Origin: a bacterium
GTDB lineage: Bacteria; Patescibacteriota; Minisyncoccia; JBDRLZ01
Length of the DNA stretch: 16,293 bases
Direction of reading: 5' to 3'
Assembly: GCA_043812555.1 (NCBI GenBank)
Contig: JBDRLZ010000034.1
Span: 1-16,293 of the forward strand
How positions within the stretch are numbered: position 1 is the first letter of the stretch; each line of letters starts with the position of its first letter. Shown here in pieces: positions 1-16,293 of the stretch. The notes beneath the pieces are model-generated. The model saw nothing but the letters and a program-made list of their open reading frames with translations. It was not told where the DNA came from and ran no database searches. A program made the position numbers and the translations under genes.

Positions 1-24
1 AAACTTGAAAGACTGTCTTGGGGA

Positions 25-1281
25 TTGTTTTTACAGATAATGATTTTTATCGCGCTTTTAGCTGGCCTTATTCACAGCGAATGGGCTTTGGGTTTGTTAA
101 TTTGGTTAGCGCGAAAAATCAAGAATATGCTAATCAGATTACAGATAGATTATCATGAGACCATTGATGATTTTATTGTTCAGTTGCAGAAAGCTGGCAA
201 AAAAATCAAAATAGCTGTTAAAATTTTATGCTTGATTTTTATTAGCTTAATTTTAGCCAGCATTATTTTGCTTTTATGGCATCAGCCGGTTTATGCGGCT
301 TTATGCGTTTTAATTCTAGCCATTGGGCCATTTTTATTAGCTCATGCTTTAAGCGCTGCGGCTTTGGATTTAATTGCTATGCCAATAGCAGGTTTGGCTG
401 CTTGGCTATTGCTGATTGCTTTTAATTTTATTGTCTGGCCGCCAGGAACAATTATGCTTGGCTGGCGATTGAGCATTTTAATTCTCTTAATGCTTATCTC
501 TTCGGTTTTTGTTATCAGCGGCCGCAAAACCAGAGGACTGCCTCTTGTTTTGGCTATTACTCTGTCAGTCTCTATAATGATTTATTCATCATCTTCTTTT
601 CTGCAAGCTGTTGGCCATAAGTTAGGCGGCAAATTCGCCATAGGCACTGCTTCAAGCAACCGCTGGGCAGGCGCAGATCAAAGAAAAGCTGAAGCAATTA
701 GAGAGTTTACTAAAGGCATTGTTATTGAAGATGGTTTGTTTAGAGATAAAGATAATCCTCAAAACACTAAGAAAGCTGTTAAGAATATGTCTGTATTGAT
801 TGAATATCAGAGCGGCAAGCCAATTAGGCCGGAACCAGTTTCAGAATTGTCGCGACAATTTAAGGGCAGTTTCTGCAAAGTTTATCTGCCGGATCAAAAT
901 GGCTCGTTTCCAAAAACAGGCCAGGGCTGGTGGATTGAGGATATTAAAATTCAGGATACTAAGCTTTTTGTGCCAAGGGTTTCCAAAGGCGGATTCGCGA
1001 AAATACAAGCGGCAAGCACAGGAAGCGCCAGCGCTAGAACTAGCCGTAGATCTTTTGCAAAATCAATTGTTCTCAAGGGACCAAGTATACCCTCAGAAGC
1101 AATTGATTTAAACAGGTATCCGGCTTATAGAGTAAATTGGTGGGGGCCGGACAATGCCAAAGTGGTATTGGGTGATGGCAGGTCCGGCGATCTCACAAAA
1201 AATTTCGGAACCATCACTGGCCGAGTGTGGTTCCAAGGGCCGGCTGGAGCAACTGTTACAGTTGTCTTCACGCCGAGGTAA
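25..1281 (+). CDS. hypothetical polytopic membrane protein with a soluble ~220-aa C-terminal domain; no family recognised; possibly 5'-partial
   Basis: Long ORF. The N-terminal ~190 aa is a series of hydrophobic helices (IMIFIALLAGLI, ILCLIFISLILASIILLLW, ILILLMLISSVFVI) and the C-terminal half is hydrophilic. TTG at 25 is only the first in-frame start, and the frame has no stop between positions 1 and 24, so the gene may begin upstream of the window. A hairpin plus T-run follows. Confidence 0.6.
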   Translation: MFLQIMIFIALLAGLIHSEWALGLLIWLARKIKNMLIRLQIDYHETIDDFIVQLQKAGKKIKIAVKILCLIFISLILASIILLLWHQPVYAALCVLILAIGPFLLAHALSAAALDLIAMPIAGLAAWLLLIAFNFIVWPPGTIMLGWRLSILILLMLISSVFVISGRKTRGLPLVLAITLSVSIMIYSSSSFLQAVGHKLGGKFAIGTASSNRWAGADQRKAEAIREFTKGIVIEDGLFRDKDNPQNTKKAVKNMSVLIEYQSGKPIRPEPVSELSRQFKGSFCKVYLPDQNGSFPKTGQGWWIEDIKIQDTKLFVPRVSKGGFAKIQAASTGSASARTSRRSFAKSIVLKGPSIPSEAIDLNRYPAYRVNWWGPDNAKVVLGDGRSGDLTKNFGTITGRVWFQGPAGATVTVVFTPR

Positions 1282-1310
1282 AAAAGGAGGCAAAAAAATT
1301 CAAAAAATAA

Positions 1311-1347
1311 AAAGGCATCGAAAAAAAACGATGTCCTTTTTTATTTT
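1311..1347 (+). terminator. rho-independent terminator candidate
   Basis: GGCATCG (1314-1320), an A8 loop, then CGATG(T)CC (1329-1336), followed by TTTTTTATTTT. Lies 30 nt after the stop at 1281. Confidence 0.6.
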
Positions 1348-1506
1348 CTAAAAATTATACCAAAAAACTTCTAATCACAAATTCAGCGCCCAAACCTCTT
1401 TAATAATCATAAGCGAAGCTATGTTCTTATTTTAATCTATTTTCAAAACCGCGTCAAATTTTTGTACGAGATGACCACATAGGTAAGGGGGCTTATAGCA
1501 AAAGAC

Positions 1507-2052
1507 ATGGCGGTTGAGGTAATTGACACTTTAAATTCAGTGAATTTATCTGAATACAGAGAAGTTATTAAATACTGCCAGAATTTTGATATTCCTTGCA
1601 ATTTCAGTTTATTCAAACCATTTAAGCCGGAGCATAATGCTTTAATTCCCGATCCCGAAGAAATCTTTGCAATAATTGTGGATTTGCTGAGCTTGCGTTC
1701 TGGCTCTGATGGTTATAAAAAAATTGGCCTGTCTAACGCAGCCATTGTTGCTGATTTACTTGAATTGCCTCAGCGGAATGAATACCGAGCAACCTTGTCG
1801 GGATTAGTGATTGATGTATCCGGACGAATGATTACCTGCCCCTCGCTAGTAGAGGCTGGTTATTACCGAGGAGAGGAATTACCATTTTTTGATGAAAACT
1901 TTTTGGAGACATGGAGAAATCATGAGATGTTCATGAAGTTTAGAGAAAACGGGTTTCGCGAGTGTCAAGCACGCAGTTATATTTTTAGCAAAGATATTAA
2001 GGGCTATGATCCTTATGGAATAAATGCTTTCAAAAAGACTTGGGCCTCCTAA
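1507..2052 (+). CDS. hypothetical protein resembling only the C-terminal (SPASM/auxiliary-region-like) half of a radical SAM enzyme; possible gene fragment
   Basis: DVSGRMITCPS followed by FFDENFLETWRNHEMFMKFRE resembles the 'dG.v.pC ... sl.eiW.s..f...r' layout of SPASM-type C-terminal domains. There is no CxxxCxxC core and no downstream Cys cluster. The 225 nt upstream is non-coding. It has its own strong terminator. Confidence 0.4.
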   Translation: MAVEVIDTLNSVNLSEYREVIKYCQNFDIPCNFSLFKPFKPEHNALIPDPEEIFAIIVDLLSLRSGSDGYKKIGLSNAAIVADLLELPQRNEYRATLSGLVIDVSGRMITCPSLVEAGYYRGEELPFFDENFLETWRNHEMFMKFRENGFRECQARSYIFSKDIKGYDPYGINAFKKTWAS

Positions 2053-2077
2053 TAATAACAATGTTAGCTAAATTTAT

Positions 2078-2112
2078 GCTATTCGTCTTAAACCGGACGA
2101 GTAGCTTTTTTT
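2078..2112 (+). terminator. rho-independent terminator
   Basis: 10-bp stem GCTATTCGTC (2078-2087) / GACGAGTAGC (2096-2105, one G-U pair), 8-nt loop, then T7 (2106-2112). Confidence 0.8.
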
Positions 2113-2192
2113 CCAGAACGATAAAGATCTGGGAGTTAATGACAAGAAAATCAAAAAGGCGGCAGAGCAATATAGATAATATACTACTTTTA

Positions 2193-2201
2193 TGCTATAC
2201 T
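2193..2201 (+). promoter_or_regulatory. extended -10 promoter (TGCTATACT) placed 6 nt before the ftsX ATG; predicts a leaderless mRNA
   Basis: TGnTATACT at 2193-2201 and ATG at 2208. No Shine-Dalgarno in between. A weak -35-like TAGATA lies at 2173-2178. Confidence 0.5.
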
Positions 2202-2207
2202 ACTATT

Positions 2208-3122
2208 ATGAAATTAGTAACTCTAAATCGCGTTATTAAAACAGGGCTTTGCAACTTCTGGCGAAACAGCTGGCTCTCAAGCGTGACCATTAGCATTATG
2301 GCTTTTACTCTTTTGATTATTGGATTTTTGCTTTTTCTTAACACAGCCACCAATGTAATTCTAGATAGCTTGCAGGAGAAAATTGATATCTCTGTTTATT
2401 TTAAGCCTGGCACAAACGAAGAAGAAATTTTTAAAATAAAAAACGAATTAACAGCTTTGCCAGAAATTCAAAATATTACTTATGTTTCCCAAGAAGAAGC
2501 CTTGGCGCGTTTTCGCGAAAAACACAAAGACAATTCTTTAATCAGCCAATCTTTGTCTGAGCTTGACGAGAATCCTCTTGAGCCGTGTTTAAATATCCAA
2601 GCCAAAGAAGCCAGTCTCTACGGCGCTGTTGTTAGTTTTTTAGAAACAAGTCAGTTTAAGCCGTTAATCAGCAATATTAATTATCAGGAAAGCAAAAAAG
2701 ATATTATTGAGCGCTTTGCTTTAATTTCTAAAAACATGCGGCGAGGAGCTTTGGTTTTATCTTTGATTTTTGCTATTATTGCTGTTCTCGTGGCTTTTAA
2801 CGCTATTCGGCTGGCGATTTATGACTCAAGGCAGGAGGTTGAAATTATGCGCTTGGTCGGAGCAAGAAATTGGTTTATTAGGGGTCCGTTTATTGTCAGC
2901 GGCTTGCTTTACGGAATAATTGGCGCTATTATTTGTTTGATTTTGCTTTATGCTGGCATTAACCTTGTTTCGCCTCAATTAACTGCTTTTGCGCCCAAGC
3001 TTGATTTAATTTTATATTTTCACAACCATATTTTGCTTATTTTTGGTTTAATTTTTTCAAGCGGCATTGCTTTGGGTGTTTTTAGCAGTTTAATCGCGAT
3101 TAGAAAGTATCTTAAAGTTTAG
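2208..3122 (+). CDS. ftsX: cell-division ABC transporter permease-like protein FtsX
   Basis: MKLVTLNRVIKTGLCNFWRNSWLSSVTISIM..., then a periplasmic loop (ISVYFKPGTNEEEIFKIKNELTALPEIQNITYVSQEEALARF) and three C-terminal TM helices. This is the canonical FtsX layout. The start was moved from the track's 2040 to 2208 because 2040-2207 contains a terminator and a promoter. Confidence 0.85.
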   Translation: MKLVTLNRVIKTGLCNFWRNSWLSSVTISIMAFTLLIIGFLLFLNTATNVILDSLQEKIDISVYFKPGTNEEEIFKIKNELTALPEIQNITYVSQEEALARFREKHKDNSLISQSLSELDENPLEPCLNIQAKEASLYGAVVSFLETSQFKPLISNINYQESKKDIIERFALISKNMRRGALVLSLIFAIIAVLVAFNAIRLAIYDSRQEVEIMRLVGARNWFIRGPFIVSGLLYGIIGAIICLILLYAGINLVSPQLTAFAPKLDLILYFHNHILLIFGLIFSSGIALGVFSSLIAIRKYLKV

Positions 3123-3189
3123 TACTTGGGGAGTAGCCAAGCGGCCTGCCCGCATCGCTACGCGAAGCGTTGCGGGCGGGTAAGGCAAT
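3118..3189 (+). repeat. relic copy of the 5' flank plus 5' half of tRNA-Gln (to tRNA position 27), interrupted by a 36-nt GC-rich hairpin
   Basis: 3118-3144 (TTTAGTACTTGGGGAGTAGCCAAGCGG) matches 3431-3457 at 26/27. 3181-3189 (TAAGGCAAT) matches 3458-3466 at 9/9. The copy lacks the anticodon loop, T arm and 3' acceptor strand. Confidence 0.85.
3145..3180 (+). other. 36-nt GC-rich imperfect hairpin inserted in the D-loop position of the relic tRNA half
   Basis: CCTGCCCGCA (3145-3154) pairs with TGCGGGCGGG (3171-3180) with one G-U. An inner ACGC-GAA-GCGT hairpin is present. The segment is absent from the intact tRNA copy and far more GC-rich than its surroundings. No T-run follows. Confidence 0.7.
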
Positions 3190-3435
3190 ATGTATTATAC
3201 CTATGTTTTAAAAAGCAAAAAAGATAAAAACCTGTATGTTGGTTTTACAAGAGATCTTAAAAGACGCTTTATCAAGCACAATAAAGGGTTGATTAGGTCT
3301 ACTGGCAAAAGAAGACCGCTTATTTTAGTATATTATGAAGCATGCCGCAATAAACAAGATGCAGCAAGACGAGAGAAATCTCTTAAAACAGGATTTGGAA
3401 GAGCATATTTAAAAAGAAGGTTAAGCGATATTTAG
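3190..3435 (+). CDS. stand-alone GIY-YIG nuclease-domain protein (COG2827/YhbQ-like, 81 aa)
   Basis: YYTYVLKSKKDKNLYVGFTRDLKRRFIKHNKG...GKRRPLILVYYEACRNKQDAARREKSLK matches the GIY...YxG...R...H/N...E catalytic pattern of small GIY-YIG proteins. No additional DNA-binding domain. Confidence 0.85.
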   Translation: MYYTYVLKSKKDKNLYVGFTRDLKRRFIKHNKGLIRSTGKRRPLILVYYEACRNKQDAARREKSLKTGFGRAYLKRRLSDI

Positions 3436-3466
3436 TATTTGGGGAGTAGCCAAGCGGTAAGGCAAT
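3190..3466 (+). mobile_element. putative one-gene GIY-YIG insertion cassette that carries or regenerates the 5' flank and 5' half of tRNA-Gln
   Basis: This is the segment between the end of the relic tRNA half (3189) and the equivalent point (3466) in the intact tRNA. It holds only the GIY-YIG ORF plus the duplicated 36 nt. Confidence 0.4.
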
Positions 3467-3510
3467 GGACTCTGAATCCATGATCGTAGGTTCGAATCCT
3501 ACCTCCCCAG
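3440..3510 (+). tRNA. tRNA-Gln(CUG): tRNA-Gln, anticodon CUG
   Basis: Hand-folded cloverleaf. Acceptor TGGGGAG/CTCCCCA, D arm GCC-AAGCGGTAA-GGC (as in E. coli tRNA-Gln), anticodon stem ATGGA/TCCAT with loop CTCTGAA, T arm GTAGG-TTCGAAT-CCTAC, discriminator G. CCA is not encoded. Confidence 0.9.
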
Positions 3511-3534
3511 CTTGAATAATTAACATTAAAAAAC

Positions 3535-4251
3535 ATGAATATAAAAATGCAAAACAAAGATTTTTTTATTAAGGCTTTTGTTGTTGCTCTTTTAACGCTT
3601 TTAGTAATTTTTGCCGGCAATGAGCTGATTGATTGGCGCAAGCAGGATAATGTTTTTCAAGTCTCGGCTGACGCTTCAATTTTTGCCAAGCCGGATTTAG
3701 CAAAAGTTAATTTAGAAATTATAAGAGAAAGCAATGCCCTGACTATTCTCCAACAGCAAATAAGCCAAGCTTCAAGCGCCCTAATAGACCAACTAAAAGA
3801 AATCGGCCTTGGAGAAAAAGACATTAAAACAACTAATTATTCTATTTCGCCGAAAACTTCATGGAACAGAGAAACAGGAGAAAGCTATATTTATGGCTTT
3901 AGAGGCGCTTTAGAAGTTGAAGTAAAAATCAGGGATTTTAATAAAATAGATCAAATTATTAGATTAGCCCAGGTTAAAAATTTGAGCTTTGAGATAGAAA
4001 ATAAAGACGAGCTTTTGGCTAAGGCTCGCGAAGAAGCAATTCAAGAGGCAAAAATTAAAGCACGAAAAATAGCTCAAGAAGCAGGCGTGTCTTTGGGCAA
4101 ATTAGTTAATATTAATATTGTTGAGAATCAAGATAATATTTATTCTAGATACGAAGCGCAAGCAATGACTAAAGAAGATCAAGGCGCTCAAATCCAGCCC
4201 GGGGAAAACGAGATTAAAGTTTATGTTAGCTTGAGTTATGAGATTAAATAA
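3535..4251 (+). CDS. SIMPL/DUF541 family protein (YggE-like), with N-terminal membrane anchor or signal
   Basis: N-terminal hydrophobic segment FIKAFVVALLTLLVIFAG. Further landmarks are DLAKVNLEI..., TTNYSISP..., YGFRGALEVEVKIRDFNKIDQII, ELLAKAREEAIQEAKIKARKIAQEAGVSLGKLVNI and IKVYVSLSYEI. This is the typical DUF541 layout. The alternative start at 3547 is not excluded. Confidence 0.75.
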   Translation: MNIKMQNKDFFIKAFVVALLTLLVIFAGNELIDWRKQDNVFQVSADASIFAKPDLAKVNLEIIRESNALTILQQQISQASSALIDQLKEIGLGEKDIKTTNYSISPKTSWNRETGESYIYGFRGALEVEVKIRDFNKIDQIIRLAQVKNLSFEIENKDELLAKAREEAIQEAKIKARKIAQEAGVSLGKLVNINIVENQDNIYSRYEAQAMTKEDQGAQIQPGENEIKVYVSLSYEIK

Positions 4252-4584
4252 ATGCTTAAACAAGTAATTATAATAAATAATAAATTAGATATGTCGGCTG
4301 GCAAGATAGCGGCCCAGGCTTGTCATGCCAGTTTGGGCGCTTTTTTGCGCGCTGATGGCCGCAAAATTCAAGAGTGGCAAGAGCAGGGACAAAAAAAAAT
4401 AATTTGCAAATCAGACGACTTAATAATTTTAAAAAATCTAGCTGATAATTTAGAAATTGCAAATTTTTTAGTCAAAGACGCTGGGCTGACAGAACTTGAA
4501 CCCGGCGCAATTACTGCTTTGGGCTTGGGGCCTGACCAAGAAGAAAAGATTGACAAGATTACAGGAAATTTGATGCTTTATTGA
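4252..4584 (+). CDS. pth2: peptidyl-tRNA hydrolase, PTH2 (archaeal/eukaryotic) type
   Basis: KQVIIINNKLDMSAGKIAAQACHASLGAF...QKKIICK...VKDAGLTELEPGAITALGLGP matches the PTH2 family signature. ATG directly abuts the upstream TAA. Confidence 0.85.
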   Translation: MLKQVIIINNKLDMSAGKIAAQACHASLGAFLRADGRKIQEWQEQGQKKIICKSDDLIILKNLADNLEIANFLVKDAGLTELEPGAITALGLGPDQEEKIDKITGNLMLY

Positions 4585-4588
4585 CCAA

Positions 4589-5596
4589 ATGCACAAGTCC
4601 CAAGTGTTTTTTTGGTTAGTTCTAAGTTTTTTAGCCGGCGTTGCTCTAAGCATAATTGGAGCGTTTACAGCCGGTTTTATTTTAATTTTGGGAATTTTGC
4701 TAATTAGCATTTCTTGGCGCAATAAAAAATTTGTTCTTGCCGGTTTTTGTTTGATTGCTTTATTCTTGGGAATATGCCGCGCAAATTTGCCTGATATAAA
4801 ATTTAATATTAGTTTTTCAGGCCTTTTGCTTCAGGCAAACGCGAGCATAGAAAAAATTCTGCCAGAGCCTCAAGCCAGCTTTTTAGCTGGGCTTTTGTTC
4901 GGTCTTGATAAAAATATTCCAAAAGATTTATTAGAAGATTTTAATAAAACCGGCACTCGGCATATAATTGCCCTGTCCGGCTATAACATAACTATTATTG
5001 CTAGTTTAATAATGAGTTTTTTATTATGGCTTGGCTTTTGGCGCAAACACGCTTTTTATTTGTCTATAATAGCAATTATATTTTTTGTGCTTGTAACCGG
5101 CGCCAGCGCTTCGGTTGTTCGGGCCGCTGTTATGGGCATTTTGGTTTTAATTGCCCAGCAATTTGGCCGGCTTTCTAACCCGCGCAATCTTTTGGCCAGC
5201 GCCGCATTTTTAATGATCTTAAAAGAGCCTAGCGGCCTTTTAGATAATATTGGCTTGCAATTGTCTTTTGCCGCAACTATTGGCATTATTTATTTATCGC
5301 CTTATTTGAAAAAATTGCCGGAAATTTTAAGAACTACTTTGTCAGCGCAGATTGCTGTCAGCCCGTTAATTTTATTTTATTTCAAGCAGATATCTTTGAT
5401 TTCTCCGATTGCAAATTTATTAGTTTTGCCGATTATCCCAATAACTATGCTTTTTGGATTTATTGCTTTGGCAATTAGCCTGCTCTATTTGCCAATCGGC
5501 ATATTTTTATCTTGGCCAGCATGGCTTTTTTTAACTTATGAAATAAAAATTATTGAACTTTTGGCAAAAGTCCCATTCGCGGGCTTGAATTTTTGA
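4589..5596 (+). CDS. comEC: ComEC/Rec2 competence channel (membrane 'Competence' domain only)
   Basis: Polytopic membrane protein with FLAGLLFGLDKNIP...FNKTGTRHIIALSGYNITII...VTGASASVVRAAVMG, the signature core of ComEC/Rec2. It ends before any MBL domain. Confidence 0.8.
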   Translation: MHKSQVFFWLVLSFLAGVALSIIGAFTAGFILILGILLISISWRNKKFVLAGFCLIALFLGICRANLPDIKFNISFSGLLLQANASIEKILPEPQASFLAGLLFGLDKNIPKDLLEDFNKTGTRHIIALSGYNITIIASLIMSFLLWLGFWRKHAFYLSIIAIIFFVLVTGASASVVRAAVMGILVLIAQQFGRLSNPRNLLASAAFLMILKEPSGLLDNIGLQLSFAATIGIIYLSPYLKKLPEILRTTLSAQIAVSPLILFYFKQISLISPIANLLVLPIIPITMLFGFIALAISLLYLPIGIFLSWPAWLFLTYEIKIIELLAKVPFAGLNF

Positions 5597-5636
5597 GAAA
5601 AATAAATTAAAATTATAAAAATGGAGGTGTTAAAAG

Positions 5637-5837
5637 ATGCTTTTGACAAAAGAATTAATAAAGGACATGAACCTTCCTGTTGTTCAAGAAGAGAATGGGG
5701 GCTATCGTTTTCTCCAATCGGTTTGTTTCTTAGACAATGGCCGGGTTTTAATTGGAGACGAAGCAAAAGAATTCAAATGTGTTATTATGTTTTTGATTTT
5801 TAATAATTTAAATGAGTTGCCGCCCAAAGAGGAATGA
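5637..5837 (+). CDS. small hypothetical ORF, possibly a relic with an Hsp70-like N-terminal segment
   Basis: Strongest Shine-Dalgarno I found in the window (GGAGGTG at 5623-5629, 7 nt before the ATG). Residues ~14-46 (PVVQEENGGYRFLQSVCFLDNGRVLIGDEAKE) resemble the DnaK segment 'vleNaeGdRttPSvvaf..dge.lvGq.AK'. The preceding GIDLGTTNS phosphate-1 motif and everything downstream are missing. Confidence 0.3.
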   Translation: MLLTKELIKDMNLPVVQEENGGYRFLQSVCFLDNGRVLIGDEAKEFKCVIMFLIFNNLNELPPKEE

Positions 5838-5950
5838 AAATTAAATTTATAATCTTTGGCAGTCTAGCAATGGCTGCCATTTTATTTTGGATGTGCTATA
5901 ATAAGAACAAATGCAATTATCAGAACTTAAAAAAGAACTGCGGCAAAAAA
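5834..5950 (+). pseudogene. relic duplicate of the 5' end of the downstream MBL (ComEC C-terminal) gene
   Basis: The 38-codon ORF MKIKFIIFGSLAMAAILFWMCY... parallels MPQKSKLIILGSLAITAFLVWLAVY at 6155. Hand alignment of 5840-5893 against 6164-6217 gives about 41/54 nt identical. It then runs out of frame into the next gene. Confidence 0.5.
5894..5902 (+). promoter_or_regulatory. extended -10 promoter (TGCTATAAT) 8 nt before the ATG at 5911; near-leaderless
   Basis: TGnTATAAT at 5894-5902, no SD before the ATG at 5911. It has the same 9-mer core as the ftsX promoter. Confidence 0.5.
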
Positions 5951-6150
5951 TATTAAGCTATATTACAGCCGCTTTTGGCTTAGTAGCGGCTTTGGCATGG
6001 AAAGACGCGATTAGCGCTATGATTGAATATCTTTTTCCATTAAGCCGCAATAATATAATTGCCAAATTTATTTATGCTTTAGTCATGACATTGGTTTTAG
6101 TTGTTATTTCGGTTTATCTGCTCAAGTGGCTGAAAAAAGACGAAGACTAA
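5911..6150 (+). CDS. small two-TM membrane protein, DUF5654-like (family assignment from memory)
   Basis: 79 aa. ITAAFGLVAALAWKDAISAMIEYLFP followed by a second TM helix (FIYALVMTLVLVVISVYLL) and a charged tail. Confidence 0.6.
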   Translation: MQLSELKKELRQKILSYITAAFGLVAALAWKDAISAMIEYLFPLSRNNIIAKFIYALVMTLVLVVISVYLLKWLKKDED

Positions 6151-6154
6151 AAAA

Positions 6155-6922
6155 ATGCCGCAAAAATCAAAATTGATTATTTTGGGCAGTTTAGCAATAA
6201 CTGCTTTTTTAGTTTGGCTTGCTGTTTATATTCAAGAAGAGCAAAATTTTTTAAAAGTTTATTTTTTTGATGTTGGCCAGGGAGACGCGATTTTAATTCA
6301 AAAAAACAGCCAGCAGATTTTAATTGACGGAGGGCCAAACAAAGCAATTTTGCAAAAGCTTGGTCAGGCAATGCCTTTTTGGGACAAAAACATTGAGCTT
6401 GTGATATCAACTCATCCTGATTATGACCATTTGGCTGGCTTGAATTATGTTTTAGAAAGATACAAAGTCAACTTGATTTTAGAAACAAGTATTTTATGCC
6501 AAACACAAGCCTGCCAAAAATACCAGAGCTTTGATAAATTGAGAAAAATTGCTGAAATTGGCCAGCAAATTAAATTAGGCCAGAATTGGCTGATAAATAT
6601 TTTGTCTGTTAAAGAATCTATTGTCGCGAAAATGCTTTATCAAGATAAGAGCTTTTTGTTTACTGGCGACGCTGGCTTTGTAATTGAAAAAGAGTTAATT
6701 AATAATAATTTTAATTTAAAATCTGATATTTTAAAAGTCGGACATCATGGCTCAAAAAACGCAACTAGTCAGGAATTTTTAGAACAAGTAAATCCTGAAA
6801 TTGCTGTGATTTCAGTTGGCAAAAATAATCAATACAACCATCCGGCTCCTGAAACACTAGAAAGACTAAAAGACATTCAGGTCTTGCGAACAGACGAAAT
6901 TGGTGATATAATTATAAAATAA
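6155..6922 (+). CDS. ComEC C-terminal-type metallo-beta-lactamase-fold hydrolase, encoded as a separate gene with an N-terminal TM anchor
   Basis: VYFFDVGQGDAILIQ, ILIDGGP, STHPDYDHLAGL (the HxDxDH variant, which I recall as typical of ComEC), FTGDAG, LKVGHHGSKNATS and YNHPAPETL. Confidence 0.85.
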   Translation: MPQKSKLIILGSLAITAFLVWLAVYIQEEQNFLKVYFFDVGQGDAILIQKNSQQILIDGGPNKAILQKLGQAMPFWDKNIELVISTHPDYDHLAGLNYVLERYKVNLILETSILCQTQACQKYQSFDKLRKIAEIGQQIKLGQNWLINILSVKESIVAKMLYQDKSFLFTGDAGFVIEKELINNNFNLKSDILKVGHHGSKNATSQEFLEQVNPEIAVISVGKNNQYNHPAPETLERLKDIQVLRTDEIGDIIIK

Positions 6923-6938
6923 GGGGGTGTACTTTGAC

Positions 6939-7334
6939 ATGAAAATCACGAAAAAAATTTTAATTTTTTTCTTTTTAGGACTTTCTGTCGGGCATTTAAT
7001 TAAAACGCAGTTTTTGTCTCCGGGAAAAACAGCCCTAAAAATAATAAAAAACGGGGAAACTATCAGCGTTTTTGCTTGTGAAGAGTCTGGCGAAAAATGC
7101 GTTGTTATCGCAGTTGAAACGCTCACGAAAAATAAAAATAAATACTTTGTGAGTACTCTTAAGATATCAGATTTTCTTGTTGAGATTGAGATTTCAAAAG
7201 CAGAAAAAAATAAAAATACATGGGCTATAAAGCCAGTCTTTTTCAAGAACTTTAATTCTCTTCCAAGGCAATGGGAGAAAATTTGCAAGAACAAAATTCA
7301 AGAATATCTTGTTCTTGTCAATAACCGCAGTTAA
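6939..7334 (+). CDS. hypothetical small secreted or membrane-anchored protein
   Basis: AAGGGGG (6921-6927) lies upstream of the ATG at 6939. N-terminus MKITKKILIFFFLGLSVG is signal-like. No family recognised. A terminator hairpin spans its stop codon. The track's GTG start at 6927 was replaced by the ATG. Confidence 0.55.
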   Translation: MKITKKILIFFFLGLSVGHLIKTQFLSPGKTALKIIKNGETISVFACEESGEKCVVIAVETLTKNKNKYFVSTLKISDFLVEIEISKAEKNKNTWAIKPVFFKNFNSLPRQWEKICKNKIQEYLVLVNNRS

Positions 7335-7350
7335 AAAAACCGCGGTTATT
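7320..7350 (+). terminator. terminator-like hairpin enclosing the stop codon
   Basis: AATAACCGC (7320-7328) / GCGGTTATT (7342-7350) form a perfect 9-bp stem. The stop TAA (7332-7334) is in the loop. The T tail is weak and A-interrupted. Confidence 0.5.
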
Positions 7351-7389
7351 TATTGAAATTAAACAAAATTTATATTAAGCTTAAAAAAC

Positions 7390-8433
7390 ATGCTAAATAA
7401 CAATTTTCCAATTTTTAAAACAAAAATTCCGGGTGATAAAACAATTTTTGATTTAGACGATCCTGTTGAACGCAAAAAATATTTTGAACATAAAGCTGAT
7501 TCTGAAATAGAAAAACTGCGCGATTATTTAAGAGACAATACTTTTGTCGGTTTTTTAATTGGTAAAAAAGGCTCGGGCAAAGGCACTTATGCCAAGCTTT
7601 TTGCCGAAGCAGTTGGCCCGAATTATATTGAGCATATTTCAGTCGGCGACATTGTCCGCAGTATTGACGCTGAATTCAAGAAAAAAGATTTTTTAGATTT
7701 TTTAAAAATAAATTATCGCGGACCAATTGCCCTAAAAGATATTATCAAATCTCTTTCTAAAAGATCGACTAAAATTCTTCTGCCAACAGAGTTAATTTTA
7801 GCTCTAGTTGAGCGGGAGATTTCAAAGCTTGGCCGCAAAGCGGTTTTTATTGACGGCTTTCCGCGCAATATGGACCAAATTTCTTATTCTCTTTATTTTC
7901 GGGCATTAATCGGTTATCGCAATGACCCTGACTTTTTTGTTTTTATTGATGTGCCAGAAGCTGTTATTGACGAGCGAATGAAATATCGCGTTGTCTGCCC
8001 AAAATGCCAATCTCCCCGAAATCTTAAACTGCTCTGCACCAAACAAGTCGGCTATGATAAAAATAACAAAAAGTTTTATTTAATTTGCGACCAGGACAAA
8101 ACGCAAATGCGGCCCAAAGAGGGAGATGAGCTGGGCATTGAAGCAATTCGCGACAGGATAGAGGCAGACGATAAAGTTGCTCAAAGCTTAATGCAAATGC
8201 AAGGCGTGCCAAAAATATATTTGCGCAATTCTCTGCCAGTCAGCACTGCTAAAAAATATGTTGATAATTACGAAATAACGCAAAGTTATTCTTACGAGTT
8301 TGATAAACAAGTAAAAATTATTAAAAAACCATGGGTGATAAAAGACAATCAAGGCGTAAAATCTTACAGCTTGCTTGCTCCGTCAGTTGTCGTGGCTCTG
8401 ATTAAGCAGATGGTTAAGATTTTGGGATTATGA
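7390..8433 (+). CDS. adenylate kinase family protein, atypically long (347 aa) with N- and C-terminal extensions and an enlarged Cys-containing LID
   Basis: P-loop GKKGSGKGT, ISVGDIVRS (compare ISTGDMLR), FIDGFPRNMDQ (compare DGFPRT..Q), and LID VCPKC...(long insert)...CDQD. Confidence 0.7.
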   Translation: MLNNNFPIFKTKIPGDKTIFDLDDPVERKKYFEHKADSEIEKLRDYLRDNTFVGFLIGKKGSGKGTYAKLFAEAVGPNYIEHISVGDIVRSIDAEFKKKDFLDFLKINYRGPIALKDIIKSLSKRSTKILLPTELILALVEREISKLGRKAVFIDGFPRNMDQISYSLYFRALIGYRNDPDFFVFIDVPEAVIDERMKYRVVCPKCQSPRNLKLLCTKQVGYDKNNKKFYLICDQDKTQMRPKEGDELGIEAIRDRIEADDKVAQSLMQMQGVPKIYLRNSLPVSTAKKYVDNYEITQSYSYEFDKQVKIIKKPWVIKDNQGVKSYSLLAPSVVVALIKQMVKILGL

Positions 8434-8442
8434 GAATGCAGC

Positions 8443-8482
8443 TTGACTGATTGTTATATGTCCGTTATTATGTACATATAAT
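8443..8482 (+). promoter_or_regulatory. sigma70-like promoter with an overlapping 10-bp palindrome (candidate antitoxin operator)
   Basis: TTGACT (8443-8448), a 17-nt spacer, then TATTAT (8466-8471). A perfect palindrome TATGTACATA at 8469-8478 overlaps the -10. Additional TATAAT at 8477-8482. Confidence 0.6.
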
Positions 8483-8499
8483 ATAATTAAACTAAAAAT

Positions 8500-8871
8500 A
8501 TGAATTCACAAAATTCTCTTTCTGTAACTGAAGCCCGCGGCAGAATTTTTGATTTAGTGCAAAAAACTGCTGCTGGCGCCAGATATTTTTTAACTGATCG
8601 CGGTAAGGCCAAGGCGGTTTTAATGTCAGCTGATGAATTTGATTCTTGGCAGGAGACTTTGGAAATAATGAGCGATCCTGAATTAATGAAAGATATCAAA
8701 GAAACAAAACAGGATATTAAGTCAGGTGCTTATAAAAATTATCCAACTTTGGAAGAAGTTCTAGCTGAAGAAGGATTTGTGCTGGCTGATAAAAGCAAAA
8801 AGAAATATGTACCAAGTAGTAGTCAAAAAAAGCGCTCAAAAAAGCTTGGCAAGACTGGATCCAAGATATAA
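8500..8871 (+). CDS. type II antitoxin, Phd/YefM family
   Basis: SVTEARGRIFDLVQKTAAGARYFLTDRGKAKAVLMSADEFDSWQETLEIMSDPELMKDIKE is a classic Phd/YefM N-terminal domain. The Lys-rich C-terminal tail overlaps the toxin gene by 65 nt. Confidence 0.8.
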   Translation: MNSQNSLSVTEARGRIFDLVQKTAAGARYFLTDRGKAKAVLMSADEFDSWQETLEIMSDPELMKDIKETKQDIKSGAYKNYPTLEEVLAEEGFVLADKSKKKYVPSSSQKKRSKKLGKTGSKI

Positions 8872-9058
8872 AGCCAGAATCCATTCTGCTTTGTTTAAAT
8901 TGGCTGAAAATCCGTATCTTGGTAAACGACTGGAAGGAAACTTGCGAGATTTTTTTTCTTTGAGGGTTTGGCCATATCGGATTATTTATCAGATAATTAA
9001 AAACGAACTCATTATTTTTGTGGTGCAAATCAAGCATCGCCAAGGTAGTTATAAATAA
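8807..9058 (+). CDS. type II toxin, RelE/ParE family
   Basis: MYQVVVKKSAQKSLARLDPRYKARIHSALFKLAENPYLGKRLEGNLRDFFSLRVWPYRIIYQIIKNELIIFVVQIKHRQ is the canonical RelE/ParE fold pattern. The start was moved to the ATG at 8807 from the track's 8777. Confidence 0.8.
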   Translation: MYQVVVKKSAQKSLARLDPRYKARIHSALFKLAENPYLGKRLEGNLRDFFSLRVWPYRIIYQIIKNELIIFVVQIKHRQGSYK

Positions 9059-9075
9059 ATTTTTGTAAGCGAAGA

Positions 9076-9147
9076 CGGAGCGTCGTATAACGGTTAGTAC
9101 ACAGGGCTGGGGGTCCTGTAATCTGGGTTCAATTCCCAGCGCTCCGA
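9076..9147 (+). tRNA. tRNA-Pro(GGG): tRNA-Pro, anticodon GGG
   Basis: Hand-folded cloverleaf. Acceptor CGGAGCG/CGCTCCG, D arm GTAT-AACGGTTA-GTAC, anticodon stem CAGGG/TCCTG with loop CTGGGGG (G37), T arm CTGGG-TTCAATT-CCCAG, discriminator A. CCA is not encoded. Confidence 0.9.
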
Positions 9148-9166
9148 CTAGAAAAAGCATAAAACT

Positions 9167-11644
9167 ATGCAAAAAGAAGCTAAAGCTAGAATTAAAATAA
9201 ATAATCTGCTCCAAGAAACCGGCTGGAGATTTTTTGATGATGAAAAAAAAGGCGCAAGAAATATTGAAGTTGAGGGCAATGTTAATTTAGAAAATTTAGG
9301 CGATGATTTTGAACACAGCATAGGTTTTATTGATTATCTGCTTTTGGATGTAAAAGGATCCCCTTTGGCTGTCTTGGAAGCGAAATCATCCAGTAAAGAC
9401 CCTGTTGCCGGCAAAAAACAAGCGGAAGATTACGCCAAAGCAAAAAGATGCCGTTTTATTATTTTAAGTAATGGCGACACACATTATTTTTGGGATTTAA
9501 ACCAAAATGCTGAAAAAATAATTTTAAAATTCCCGACACAAAAAGATTTAACGAAGTTGCTCAGCGCAACAACCGCAATGCCTTTATCCGGCATTGATGT
9601 AAAAAATGATTGGATTGTTTTAAGCCAAGGCGCAGTGGCAGAGGAGGAGAAAAAATATCTGCGGGATTATCAATTAGAAGCGTTAAAAACCATTGCCGCT
9701 AAATTTGACAGCAATACTAATAATCGCCGTTTTCTTTTGGAAATGGCAACAGGCACCGGTAAAACTCTGCTGGCCGCGGCTTTGATTAAATTATTTTTAA
9801 ATACCGGCAATGCCAGCAGAATAATCTTTTTGGTTGATAGAATTGAACTGGCGCAACAGGCATTGCAAAACATCAGTTCTTATTTAAAAGAATATAATCT
9901 TTGCATCTTTAAAGAAAACAAAGACCAAGCCTTGCAAAACCAAGTAGTAATTGCGACTATTCAAAGCTTATCATACAATCAAAATTATTTAAAATATTTC
10001 AGCCAGTTTGATTTTGATTTATTAATTTCTGATGAAGCGCATCGCAGTATTTACGGCAACAATCGGGCAATTTTTGAATATTTTCAAGCCATAAAAATCG
10101 GACTTACTGCTACGCCAAAGGATTATTTAAAAAACATTGATGAAAAAGATTTAGCAGACACGGATCCGCGAAAATTAGAAAAAAGAATTCTTTTTGACAC
10201 TTATAAAACATTCGGTTGCGAAAAAGGCGAGCCAAGTTTTCGATTTGATTTAAAAGCCGCGGTTAATCATCAGCCGCCTTATTTAGTAAATCCGATTATT
10301 TATGACAAGCGAAGCGATAAGACTAATCAAATGCTTTCAGATCAGGGCTGGACAGATGCTTTTATTGACGAGGTAACTGGCGAACGAGTGGAAGAAACAT
10401 TTAAAATCCGCCAGCTGGAGCGCAAAGTATTTTCTGATAGTTTAAGTCGTTTAATTGTTGATGAATTTTTAAAAACCTCCCAAAAAGATCCGATTACCAG
10501 AGAAACAGGCAAATCAATTATTTACTGCATATCTCAAAACCATGCCTCAAAAATTGCCCGCCTTCTAAACCAGGCGGCTGATAAAAATTGGCCAGGAAAA
10601 TACTCCGGACACAGCGGAGTTTTCGCGCGCCAAATTACCAGCAATGTAGTTGGCAGTCAAGATTTAGCCAAAAAATTCCGCAACAATCAATTAGGCGCAA
10701 CCAGGGTAGTAGTTACCGTTAATATGATGACTACTGGTTATGATTGCACTGATTTGCTAAATGTTGTTTTAATGCGTCCGATTTTTTCAATCACTGATTT
10801 TATTCAAATTAAAGGCCGAGGCACCCGCCTGCATACTTTTAAAAATGAGCTTACAAAAACAGAGATTAAAAAGGATAATTTTCATTTAATTGATTTTTTT
10901 GGCGTGTGTGAATACTTTGAGGAAAAATATGATTTCACAGTGCCAATCAAACTTTTATCTGTTCTTAGAGACAAACCAATTAGACATTATGGGCAAATTA
11001 AGACAGAAGACAAAACTGTCCTAGAGAAAGAAGAAGCGCCGATTGCTGTTTTGCATGGCCATTATATTTACATCGGCACAGACTTTTTAGTTCGCGACAA
11101 TCAATTAGTAGTTGGTCCGGAATGTATGCGCGTTGACCGCGAGGCCTATCGCGGTTATTTTGAAGAATCAGTTAAGGACTTGATAAAAATAGATCCGTTT
11201 TTTGAATCAGCCATAACCAAAGATGATATTGAGGCGACCGAAGAAATCGCTCAAGAAAAAATATTGGAAAAGCCGATTTATTATTTTACCCTTGATTCTT
11301 TGCGCAAAGCGTATCAAACCGGCAACGCGCTGATTGATTTTCTTAAAAAAGCCGCGGGCTTAATTCCGAAATTGCCGAATAAATATGACCGCCTGAATCA
11401 AGGTTTTGAAGAGTTTAAACTAATTTATTCTGATACGCCTTTTGAAAAGCTGAATTATTTTCAAAATATTTATGAGTGTTATCTTACTAGTCCAGACTAT
11501 CGCCTTGCTCTTGAAAAAGGCAATTTAGCCGCGCTTGACGACCAAGCTTTCGGCGGAATTGTGCCAGTCGGCAGAGTCAATCGCGAGGAAGTGGAAAAAG
11601 TAGTCAATTACATAAAAGAATCTAAAATCGCTTATGTCAACTAA
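9167..11644 (+). CDS. hsdR: type I restriction enzyme R subunit (COG4096/EcoEI-like HsdR)
   Basis: N-terminal PD-(D/E)xK nuclease (KINNLLQETGW..., IDYLLLD, LEAKSS). SF2 motor motifs LRDYQLEA, EMATGTGKT, SDEAHRS, LTATP, TTGYDC and QIKGRGTR. Long C-terminal helical domain. Starts 19 nt after tRNA-Pro. Confidence 0.85.
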   Translation: MQKEAKARIKINNLLQETGWRFFDDEKKGARNIEVEGNVNLENLGDDFEHSIGFIDYLLLDVKGSPLAVLEAKSSSKDPVAGKKQAEDYAKAKRCRFIILSNGDTHYFWDLNQNAEKIILKFPTQKDLTKLLSATTAMPLSGIDVKNDWIVLSQGAVAEEEKKYLRDYQLEALKTIAAKFDSNTNNRRFLLEMATGTGKTLLAAALIKLFLNTGNASRIIFLVDRIELAQQALQNISSYLKEYNLCIFKENKDQALQNQVVIATIQSLSYNQNYLKYFSQFDFDLLISDEAHRSIYGNNRAIFEYFQAIKIGLTATPKDYLKNIDEKDLADTDPRKLEKRILFDTYKTFGCEKGEPSFRFDLKAAVNHQPPYLVNPIIYDKRSDKTNQMLSDQGWTDAFIDEVTGERVEETFKIRQLERKVFSDSLSRLIVDEFLKTSQKDPITRETGKSIIYCISQNHASKIARLLNQAADKNWPGKYSGHSGVFARQITSNVVGSQDLAKKFRNNQLGATRVVVTVNMMTTGYDCTDLLNVVLMRPIFSITDFIQIKGRGTRLHTFKNELTKTEIKKDNFHLIDFFGVCEYFEEKYDFTVPIKLLSVLRDKPIRHYGQIKTEDKTVLEKEEAPIAVLHGHYIYIGTDFLVRDNQLVVGPECMRVDREAYRGYFEESVKDLIKIDPFFESAITKDDIEATEEIAQEKILEKPIYYFTLDSLRKAYQTGNALIDFLKKAAGLIPKLPNKYDRLNQGFEEFKLIYSDTPFEKLNYFQNIYECYLTSPDYRLALEKGNLAALDDQAFGGIVPVGRVNREEVEKVVNYIKESKIAYVN

Positions 11645-14048: not shown

Positions 14049-14053
14049 CTAAT

Positions 14054-16039: not shown

Positions 16040-16070
16040 ATTATTGAGGAAATTGATTTTTTGTGAGATA

Positions 16071-16154
16071 ATCAAAATACTAATCCCACCCACCACCCAA
16101 TTTGAGGTCCCGCCGCTGCCTGAAAGAATCACCGAAGTTTTAAGCGAAATTTAG
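16071..16154 (+). pseudogene. relic 3' end of an hsdS-type gene
   Basis: 16122-16154 matches 14016-14048 (the last 11 codons of hsdM-S including the stop) at about 28/33 nt. It translates to ...FEVPPLPERITEVLSEI*, against ...KISEVLSEI* in hsdM-S. PPLPE resembles the conserved IPLPP(L/I)E(E/V)Q motif. Upstream AAAATACTAATCCCACC weakly echoes AAAATCCCGCT at about 13911. Confidence 0.6.
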
Positions 16155-16168
16155 GTGTGTCTAACTTC

Positions 16169-16209
16169 TTTACATCGTCCTTGACAAACTATTTTACATC
16201 ATCTAAAAT
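16169..16209 (+). promoter_or_regulatory. sigma70-like promoter flanked by direct repeats; predicts a leaderless XRE mRNA
   Basis: TTGACA (16181-16186), a 17-nt spacer, TAAAAT (16204-16209), then 6 nt to the ATG at 16216. Direct repeats TTTACATCGTC (16169-16179) and TTTACATCATC (16193-16203) flank the -35. Confidence 0.6.
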
Positions 16210-16215
16210 ATAACC

Positions 16216-16293
16216 ATGCTTTCAAAATTTATTTTAGAACAGCGAAAAAAGAATAATCTGACGCAGGAGTTTTTAGCGTCTAAAATCGGCGTT
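16216..16293 (+). CDS. XRE-family helix-turn-helix transcriptional regulator (3'-partial, runs off the window)
   Basis: MLSKFILEQRKKNNLTQEFLASKIGV matches the start of the Cro/C1-type HTH (R...LTQEELA.K.GV). Confidence 0.7.
   Translation, partial: MLSKFILEQRKKNNLTQEFLASKIGV

Follow-up and report, generated by a model that had tools for sequence, protein, structure and literature searches.

The question raised by the ftsX/tRNA-Gln junction of a 16,293-nucleotide (nt) stretch of contig JBDRLZ010000034.1 (positions 1 to 16,293, forward strand; assembly GCA_043812555.1, Patescibacteriota; this whole stretch is called the window below) was how a gene for an 81-amino-acid (aa) GIY-YIG nuclease had come to lie between two copies of the 5′ part of one tRNA gene. 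The junction displayed the following features:

2208..3122, plus strand: ftsX, the upstream host gene (Pfam FtsX_ECD and FtsX matches)
3127..3144, plus strand: remnant part a, nt 1-18 of the old tRNA-Gln gene (identical to 3440-3457)
3145..3180, no strand: H, the 36-nt imperfect palindrome CCTGCCCGCATCGCTACGCGAAGCGTTGCGGGCGGG (an inverted repeat, sitting in the D-loop of the remnant)
3181..3189, plus strand: remnant part b, tRNA-Gln nt 19-27 (TAAGGCAAT; identical to 3458-3466)
3190..3435, plus strand: GIY-YIG nuclease gene, 81 aa (PF01541), its ATG abutting remnant part b
3431..3439, plus strand: copied upstream flank TTTAGTATT (versus TTTAGTACT at 3118-3126), the right insertion junction
3440..3511, plus strand: intact tRNA-Gln(CUG) (ARAGORN; Rfam tRNA, 70.2 bits, E = 4e-15)

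The ftsX product was 100% identical to the database protein P0121 (304 aa), from whose length the ftsX start at ~2208 was derived. On its left side, the tRNA-Gln gene was natively flanked by the final ftsX codons plus the TAG stop (3120-3122), and remnant part a was joined to this native flank (3118-3126), as at the empty sites L085 and L206 (see below). A repeat search reproduced the 26/27 block described in an earlier annotation made from the letters of the window alone (the first-pass annotation), namely TTTAGTACTTGGGGAGTAGCCAAGCGG (3118-3144) repeated over 27 nt as TTTAGTATTTGGGGAGTAGCCAAGCGG (3431-3457), while the 9-nt block of that annotation, TAAGGCAAT, was extended by two G to the 11/11 repeat GGTAAGGCAAT (3179-3189 and 3456-3466). 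The 14-mer TGGGGAGTAGCCAA was found only at 3127 and 3440 across the 16.3-kb window, so the repeat was not due to chance, and the remnant differed from the intact 5′ copy at 1/36 nt. The upstream copy ended at tRNA nt 27, with base 3190 being the A of the ATG, as previously described, and the TAG stops of ftsX (3120-3122) and of the nuclease open reading frame (ORF; 3433-3435) each lay 4 nt ahead of the tRNA 5′ sequence, in keeping with the matching positions in the two repeat copies that had been noted for them. The copied flank 3431-3439 overlapped the last codon and the stop of the nuclease ORF, and similar overlaps between flank and ORF 3′ end were found at L008, L012, L021, and L046. ARAGORN and Rfam agreed on the complete downstream tRNA-Gln(CUG) that had been claimed; this tRNA, built from the duplicated 5′ part and the original body, was near-identical to those of the empty sites L085, L206, and L208 and is presumably functional. 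The inserted DNA amounted to 313 nt (3145-3457, in one register), not to the ~277 nt first estimated, in which H within the old copy had been overlooked; the repeats enclosed 286 nt (3145-3430: H, part b, and the ORF). The nuclease ORF occurred as a single copy within the window, and AAGG in remnant part b may act as its ribosome-binding site.

FtsX homologues were searched, and the contigs of the closest ones were examined. The relatives with an uninterrupted ftsX-tRNA-Gln junction, for which the first-pass annotation had proposed to look, were found in seven cases, in all of which an uninterrupted tRNA-Gln(CUG) began 1-8 nt after the ftsX stop:

L206: FtsX 82% identical to that of the window, empty site
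L085 and L081: FtsX 77% identical, empty sites
L208: FtsX 66% identical, empty site
L207, L083, and L084: FtsX 59% identical, empty sites

At the ftsX/tRNA-Gln junction of these seven loci (L081, L083, L084, L085, L206, L207, and L208), there was no nuclease gene, no hairpin H, and no duplication. The seven empty junctions identified the upstream partial copy of the window as the native ftsX/tRNA junction and everything from H through the second flank and 5′ copy as derived; the window structure was thus an insertion. No integrase, transposase, or reverse transcriptase was present among the 17 longest plus-strand ORFs of the window, the sole ORFs scanned, and together with the seven empty relatives this bore out the proposal of an insertion into a tRNA gene without an integrase. 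That a selfish insertion lacking a recombinase disrupted the end of its target and supplied a substitute end is regarded as firm. A self-splicing intron or other catalogued RNA was considered and rejected: an Rfam E-value scan of 2900-3800 gave the tRNA as sole match (the next overlap, frnS with E = 0.4, was at chance level), and the 313-nt insert was too small for a ribozyme.

tRNA genes are classical integration sites, at which integration yields direct repeats of part of the tRNA, and both the site and the direct repeat found here would be typical of an attachment-site scar left by an integrase-driven island or prophage; an assembly artefact could likewise duplicate a tRNA start. The scar was contradicted by the lack of integrase and phage genes among the scanned ORFs, by the 5′ polarity, by the mere 286 nt between the repeats, and by the near-absence of the nuclease family from 2.9 million viral contigs (one hit only), while the artefact was contradicted by the like structure in dozens of independent assemblies (see below) and by the conserved element interrupting the repeat, unlike in mis-assembly. 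An origin of either kind is extremely improbable.

The nuclease matched PF01541 with E = 7.1e-17 and 61.9 bits (cut-off 22.6), which upheld the earlier call of a stand-alone 81-aa GIY-YIG ORF. Across 31 homologues, 23 columns were invariant, including Y5, Y16, R26, H30, and E62, which we take from the motif to be the GIY-YIG catalytic positions. The AlphaFold model of the 81-aa protein had a pLDDT of 94.7 and the order beta-beta-alpha-beta-alpha-alpha. A family profile compared with PDB matched 1zg2 (UPF0213 BH0048; E = 8.9e-9), 1ywl (EF2693; E = 8e-7), and, more weakly, SLX1 7wme/7cq2 (E about 5e-3); Foldseek ranked 1zg2 first, followed by Slx1 7cq3 [TM 0.72, root mean square deviation (rmsd) 2.0 Å] and 6sei (TM 0.66), with a TM of only 0.45 for the I-TevI catalytic domain 1ln0. 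The profile TIGR01453 (group I intron endonuclease) scored 18 bits against a cut-off of 56, and PHROG gave no match. All 81 aa were accounted for by the catalytic domain, neither Pfam nor the model indicating a DNA-binding domain. By sequence and predicted structure, the protein is a bare Slx1/UPF0213 (YhbQ-like) catalytic domain encoded on cellular chromosomes, and with invariant residues at the expected active-site positions and a confident model it is likely active as an enzyme. Structure-specific cleavage of branched or hairpin DNA is only suggested by the link of this Slx1-like clade with a palindrome. The homing-endonuclease reading of the first-pass annotation thus held for the GIY-YIG domain and failed for the classical I-TevI/Seg type, the protein belonging to the Slx1/UPF0213 clade and being devoid of a DNA-binding domain; the targeting of the tRNA gene by the nuclease, as proposed in that annotation, is putative. 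More than 1000 homologues at 60-75% identity were found, mostly in metagenome-assembled genomes of Patescibacteria, or Candidate Phyla Radiation (CPR), and nearly all family copies were intact; some of these genes were labelled 'excinuclease ABC subunit C' in their genomes.

The comparison was extended to 80 genomic loci carrying relatives of the nuclease (more than 596 exist). Class A, comprising 33 of these 80 loci, shared the order [target start]-H-[short target piece, 4-15 nt]-ORF-[intact target], which answered the earlier proposal to look for other copies of the ORF flanked by a duplicated target end. A same-strand tRNA gene started -14 to +21 nt from the ORF stop in 23/80 loci, and in 6 further loci such a tRNA came after extra remnant units. 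The target tRNAs were of nine kinds (Gln, Ile, Asn, Glu, Ala, Lys, His, Thr, and Leu), and the 5′ end of an epimerase gene was a non-tRNA class A target (L056 and L053). At the tRNA-adjacent loci, the tRNA 5′ part was duplicated upstream of the ORF, usually with 3-21 nt of upstream flank, and an H-type palindrome, 33-79 nt long when nested forms are counted, invariably split the duplicate, H being found in the remnant in 24/24 cases (the window plus 23 loci). The architecture of a duplicated 5′ part with a few bases of upstream flank and an intact gene left behind, which the first-pass annotation had described for the window, was accordingly one that recurred at many tRNAs. H was located after nt 8-9, 12-13, 15-18, or 21 of the tRNA remnant or in its anticodon loop; the short piece between H and ORF measured 6-15 nt and ended between tRNA nt 16 and 32; and microhomologies of 5-7 nt were present at the ORF 3′ junction. 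The insertion sites fell in tRNA D- or T-arms and in the GxGxxG and RDRDTMEQ motifs; judged from these sequences, conserved targets are what homing sites would be expected to show. ORF clades tracked tRNA type only weakly, class A being intermixed at ~70% identity and classes B and C (see below) forming clear clades, and nearest-relative ORF pairs with a common target and H position were L008/L033, L025/L034, and L007/L057.

Two loci displayed the mirror arrangement: (i) in L113, a complete tRNA-Val and, after it, the ORF preceded the 3′ remnant GGTCGCA-H-GGTTCGAACCCTGCATCGCGCACCA, whose T-stem contained H, and (ii) L002 contained a complete glycyl-tRNA synthetase (GlyRS) gene, the ORF, and then an H-interrupted remnant of the last 20 codons of that gene. 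The L002 remnant had retained the reading frame and shared 70% identity with the intact end; of the codon differences, 6 were synonymous and 6 non-synonymous. This pattern suggests that the two ends came from different alleles, one of them imported with the element; remnant and intact copies also differed in L153, L142, and L053. As a general rule, the order was [long remnant, joined to native flank]-H-[short piece]-ORF-[intact copy], and ORF and target pointed in the same direction. The linkage of ORF and H and the recurrence of the architecture were established. Two other arrangements were tried and rejected: circular permutation (a circle of H plus ORF opened at various points), because the piece between H and ORF derived from the target, and a cut-and-paste transposon with long target duplication, because H occurred in only one of the two copies.

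H had a G+C content of 75% in a window of 36.7% G+C. The 75-nt stretch 3126-3200 containing it had a folding energy of -34.1 kcal/mol (z = -3.1), contributed mainly by an 11+4 bp hairpin, and H alone reached -26.9 kcal/mol. In about 40 of the 80 loci, H lay 10-42 nt upstream or 13-53 nt downstream of the ORF; ~40 copies were within 60 nt of an ORF, compared with 2-3 elsewhere in the 320 kb of these loci. A consensus scan of metagenomes retrieved at least 120 stretches with H, mostly solo: among the matches listed, 110/122 copies had no GIY-YIG gene in the fetched locus, and ~40% of the 122 lay inside ORFs of at least 450 nt. The eight in-ORF copies that were translated all used one frame and encoded the 12 residues PARNA(T/S)HS(V/D)AGG. 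The H-carrying ORFs resembled, by our reading of their motifs, alanyl-tRNA synthetase (AlaRS), cysteine desulfurase, ribonucleotide reductase, IF2, and GatB. Examples of solo H inside ORFs, from the metagenome loci L086-L205, were as follows:

L128: 5246-5281
L120: 760-795
L097: 10901-10936
L149: 301-336
L177: 3643-3678
L190: 821-856

With its dispersal as solo copies and within ORFs, H behaved as an independent dispersed palindromic element. Target-site duplication at solo H was inconsistent, being 7 nt or longer in 4/114 copies, which lay in locally repetitive flanks. Nested H, inserted in the loop of another H, was found in L020, L048, L090, L156, and L164. Three explanations of H were rejected: (i) H as the tip of longer flank hairpins, which was not general; (ii) H tolerated in otherwise complete tRNA genes, since in-silico deletion of H restored a tRNA in 0/122 cases, confining H in tRNA context to truncated remnants; and (iii) a fixed orientation of H relative to the ORF, as for an oriented RNA signal, the two orientations being seen 8 versus 8 times. 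L183 carried two opposite H copies (1366-1401 and 7735-7770), which had mutually reverse-complementary flanks and bracketed about 6.3 kb, a segment that is either a large inverted repeat or an H-bounded invertible segment. Further small G+C-rich hairpin modules, CACCCAAAGGGTG, CAGCCAAAGGCTG, and CCGCCTCTGGCGG, were seen in intergenic regions of AT-rich genomes, often near tRNA genes (L082, 1870-1905; L085, 1258-1275; L117, about 10720-10760; and L153, 5614-5646), and resembled those that accompany nucleases of the type 3 subfamily (see below).

Three nuclease subfamilies, each with its own hairpin, shared one layout. The type 2 subfamily (L048, L100, and L003) had the hairpins TCGCCTC.TCGGCGA and CC.RCCG..GAGG..GG, whose stems showed compensatory changes, and the type 3 subfamily (L170, 692-1166) had the hairpins TCACCCAAAGGGTGA and CCAGCCTTTGGCTGG in the anticodon loop of a tRNA-Glu remnant; the position of this double hairpin of L170 was that of canonical tRNA introns. 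In L100 (3160-3613, minus strand), the nuclease ORF had no stop of its own and ended at a TAG provided by tRNA nt 7-9.

Other loci departed from the class A order. The class B loci (26, one clade, many outside CPR) had an 84-aa nuclease with the C-terminus RLKSYLTG, and an AT-rich terminal inverted repeat of 13 bp (ACCCTGTTAAATA ... TATTTAACAGGGT) enclosed the ORF, with the right arm of the repeat encoding that C-terminus; the insertion was precise, after '..SVPSNIA' in four-helix-bundle genes (similar to the 23S rRNA intervening-sequence protein), with no duplication, and in-silico removal of the element restored the reading frame. The non-CPR hosts of class B were Desulfobacterales, Bacteroidota, Chlorobium, and Verrucomicrobiales. 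The class C loci (10, one clade, CPR genomes) had the order smpB-ORF-H-transfer-messenger RNA (tmRNA) gene with no target duplication; the ORF came right after the smpB stop, and one or two H copies (the older degenerate) abutted the GGGG 5′ end of the tmRNA. In class D, the ORF lay between split H arms. The loci were located as follows:

Class B, around 1975-2255: L010, L031, L060, L064, L074, and ~20 others
Class C, about 1990-2340: L004, L005, L006, L014, L018, L029, L032, L035, L044, and L071
Further class C-type loci: L099, L175, and L200
Class D: L015, L040, and L053

Repeated insertion and decay were also seen. L048 (1913-2640) had been invaded twice in succession at a single tRNA-Gln: the first unit to enter was frameshifted, and the later one belonged to another GIY-YIG subfamily, with a double hairpin of another kind. 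L054 contained a three-unit array, two units of which had internally deleted ORFs, before a single intact tRNA. Tandem units in these two loci were always upstream of the single intact copy, with the older ORFs decayed or deleted; pseudogenes and tandem and nested insertions were found in L048, L054, and L041. A duplication without any GIY-YIG gene had been named in the first-pass annotation as a finding that would speak against its reading. Such loci did exist, L153 and L198 each showing a remnant, H, and a short piece, with the intact tRNA ~40 nt on and no ORF; they most likely reflect ORF loss, as in the L054 array.

The strong purifying selection (the 23 invariant columns), the nearly uniform intactness of the copies, and the stable position of one clade between smpB and ssrA in at least 10 genomes would also suit a domesticated or housekeeping nuclease, for example one that works in tRNA/tmRNA or DNA repair metabolism and whose gene shares its transcript with stable RNA genes; the duplicated tRNA half would then be the fossil of an old local rearrangement and H an unrelated repeat in dead DNA. 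A published report of fusions between Slx1-like GIY-YIG domains and the tRNA Gm18 methyltransferase TrmH (PMC1564403) points in the same direction. This explanation is nonetheless improbable in view of (i) the close relatives with no gene at the site (the seven empty sites), (ii) the variation of the adjoining tRNA between genomes, (iii) the tandem and nested insertions and pseudogenes just described, (iv) the interruption of other genes (four-helix-bundle genes and the ends of the epimerase and GlyRS genes), and (v) the presence of H in the remnant in all 24 tRNA-adjacent cases, beyond what independent chance insertion would give.

The explanation favored here, held at about even probability, is that of a three-part selfish cassette (the 36-nt palindrome H, the gene for the 81-aa Slx1-like nuclease, and a replacement copy of the target 5′ end) that would move by homing. 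The cassette occupies the first 27 nt of a tRNA-Gln gene that once stood directly after ftsX: the old 5′ part is a dead remnant split by H, and the second copy (9 nt of flank plus tRNA nt 1-27) rebuilds the tRNA. The nuclease would cut an unoccupied copy of the target, and host recombination would repair the cut from the occupied copy, the remnant serving as the left arm and the tRNA body as the right, so that H, the ORF, and the replacement 5′ end would be copied together, like the mobile endonuclease ORFs of fungal mitochondria. New target types would be acquired rarely, by microhomology-mediated joining. H would both destroy the leftover site in the remnant and interrupt a direct repeat that could otherwise delete the ORF. 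Promoter and terminator prediction gave nothing between remnant, ORF, and tRNA, and the simplest reading is that the promoterless ORF would be transcribed by read-through from ftsX or a tRNA promoter, with RNase P freeing the tRNA from the same transcript. Homing would be favored by ORF lineages coherent in target and H position, by the high conservation of the target sequences, and by the divergence of remnant and intact copies in L002, L153, and L142; arrays of the L054 type would stem from re-cutting of the intact copy.

Several observations weigh against this explanation. The intact tRNA copy kept the exact sequence that was interrupted in the remnant, so that, if this sequence is the cleavage site, the host would be unprotected, with no obvious immunity. 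The 81-aa catalytic domain had no evident means of reading a sequence, and with the variable H position and piece end, no single recognition site was apparent. H alone was far more numerous than simple cassette homing explains, and the pairing of each subfamily with its own hairpin points to the nuclease recognizing the hairpin, not the empty target. The members in different genomes were ~70% identical, so no recent transfer was caught.

A hairpin-directed system, in which the Slx1-like nuclease would recognize the structure of its own palindrome (a cruciform or a single-stranded-DNA hairpin) and cut a few bases from its foot, is favored by all of these observations but the last. It would be a GIY-YIG analogue of REP/RAYT or of insertion sequences with hairpin ends. 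H would be the true mobile unit; the nuclease gene would persist through an H within 4-50 nt or by lying between split H arms; the duplication would be the repair product of staggered or H-proximal breaks (by microhomology and synthesis from the sister copy); and in essential genes, only outcomes that rebuild the gene would survive. Consistent with this were the structure-specific Slx1 nucleases as best structural matches and the absence of a DNA-binding domain; the presence of H 10-53 nt from the ORF in about half of the 80 loci with its scarcity elsewhere in 320 kb; the distinct hairpin type of each subfamily, with compensatory changes in the type 2 stems; the ORFs between split arms (L015, L040, and L053) or 13-bp AT-rich inverted repeats (class B); the nesting of H in H loops; the random H orientation, as expected of a DNA palindrome; the narrow distance from H to the ORF junction (6-15 nt) while the tRNA position varied; the 5-7 nt microhomologies at the ORF 3′ junction; and the duplications of remnant plus H without an ORF (L153 and L198). 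On the other side, solo H showed no consistent target-site duplication, no GIY-YIG enzyme is known to form the covalent intermediates of HUH transposition, and the divergence in L002, L153, and L142 is more readily explained by import from another genome than by in-place repair. This system is judged possible but rather unlikely, and it and the homing-type model are not fully exclusive. That Slx1-like GIY-YIG nucleases and their matched G+C-rich palindromes make up an undescribed two-component bacterial mobile system, a GIY-YIG counterpart of REP/RAYT, is put forward tentatively. If this were true, a structure-specific nuclease would mobilize a hairpin of 30-47 nt; the hairpin would have colonized tRNA, tmRNA, and conserved genes, as well as many housekeeping CPR proteins as an in-frame 12-residue insert; and the nuclease gene would maintain itself by lodging at gene termini, accompanied by a restorative duplication.

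The first-pass annotation could not match the polarity and mechanism of the window structure to a described element, and here a comparable one was found. In fungal mitochondria, a mobile endonuclease ORF (mORF) brings along a C-terminal segment of foreign origin for the gene that it enters, and the native C-terminus stays behind as a remnant, as in atp6 of Allomyces macrogynus and atp6, atp9, cox2, and nad3 of Glomus, and an mORF endonuclease was shown to drive the mobility (PMC3630166). The mORFs and the cassette had in common (i) a stand-alone endonuclease ORF (LAGLIDADG or GIY-YIG in mORFs) between the intact gene and a displaced remnant and (ii) empty sites in relatives, with no intron, intein, or integrase; the order in the mirror cases L002 and L113 was exactly that of mORFs. 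Unlike mORFs, the cassette was found on bacterial chromosomes (CPR/Patescibacteria and others), lay mostly at tRNA/tmRNA genes with mostly the 5′ end replaced, encoded an 81-aa Slx1-like domain with no DNA-binding part, and had a remnant always interrupted by a conserved palindrome. The replacement segment of mORFs is diverged, which confers immunity, whereas the window copy was near-identical to the remnant and such immunity was not evident. mORFs are the best-documented mobility precedent for the cassette.

Seg proteins are larger than the cassette nuclease and carry DNA-binding domains. The cassette nuclease grouped with Slx1/UPF0213, not with I-TevI, and did not have the classical homing-endonuclease architecture because it had no DNA-binding domain. 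SegB-type free-standing GIY-YIG genes of the T4 tRNA cluster are described as preferentially inherited through double-strand-break repair with co-conversion of flanks (PMC2330249), and the cassette resembles the Seg genes of T4-like phages in having a GIY-YIG gene alone between or beside tRNA genes. Unlike the cassette, Seg genes are phage-borne and have no target duplication and no hairpin.

Islands and prophages that target tRNA genes insert by means of a tyrosine or serine integrase, and it is the 3′ part of the tRNA that they restore. The cassette resembled them in keeping the tRNA gene functional by a carried copy of the displaced part and in leaving a direct repeat, but differed in having no recombinase, in regenerating the 5′ part plus flank, and in the 313-nt size of the insert. 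Repetitive extragenic palindromic (REP) sequences and their RAYT genes combine short palindromes dispersed in many copies with a nuclease gene flanked by repeats, and Rickettsia palindromic elements insert in frame into protein genes. Like REP/REPIN and Rickettsia elements (20-150 nt), H was short, palindromic, and dispersed, and it adjoined a nuclease gene in about half of the loci; RAYT is an HUH/Y1 transposase, whereas the H-linked gene encoded a GIY-YIG nuclease, and REPs, unlike H, are mostly extragenic and have not been described with restorative tRNA-gene duplications. In CPR rRNA genes, a 2024 survey found GIY-YIG ORFs in non-group I/II insertions, mostly at stem-loops, and considered them outside homing, with no hairpin partner, tRNA targeting, or restorative duplication reported (PMC11270868). 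These insertions and the cassette shared the host group, GIY-YIG ORFs outside introns, and structured RNA genes as sites. Full-text literature searches, which did not extend to subscription-only papers, found neither a bacterial GIY-YIG cassette with a duplicated tRNA 5′ part nor the pairing of such a nuclease with a palindrome.

Introns and inteins are known to shelter selfish endonuclease genes within essential genes, and the cassette represents a third route, a spare gene end, which is documented in fungal mitochondria and is now seen to be widespread in bacterial chromosomes, with 5′ polarity and at tRNA/tmRNA genes. Its nuclease is about one-third the size of known homing enzymes. The data suggest the nuclease as a candidate driver of a dispersed 36-nt palindrome inserted in frame in CPR core proteins, and the system offers a testable case of structure-guided DNA mobility. 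For annotation, tRNA 5′ pseudo-halves, 12-residue 'PARNA..AGG' inserts, and 'excinuclease ABC subunit C' labels become recognizable, and an 80-aa nuclease with a hairpin partner may be of engineering interest.

The rest of the window contained a Phd/YefM antitoxin gene (8500-8871) and a tRNA-Pro(GGG) (9076-9148), directly followed by a type I restriction-modification system (HsdR-like, 9167-11644; fused HsdM/HsdS, 11634-14048) and then a UvrD-like helicase (14054-16039); the region 8500-16039 could be a defence island beside a tRNA. Upstream of ftsX, the two ORFs 25-1281 (418 aa) and 1507-2052 (181 aa) had no Pfam match; ftsE was not seen upstream of the window ftsX, and it directly preceded ftsX in L082, L083, and L084.

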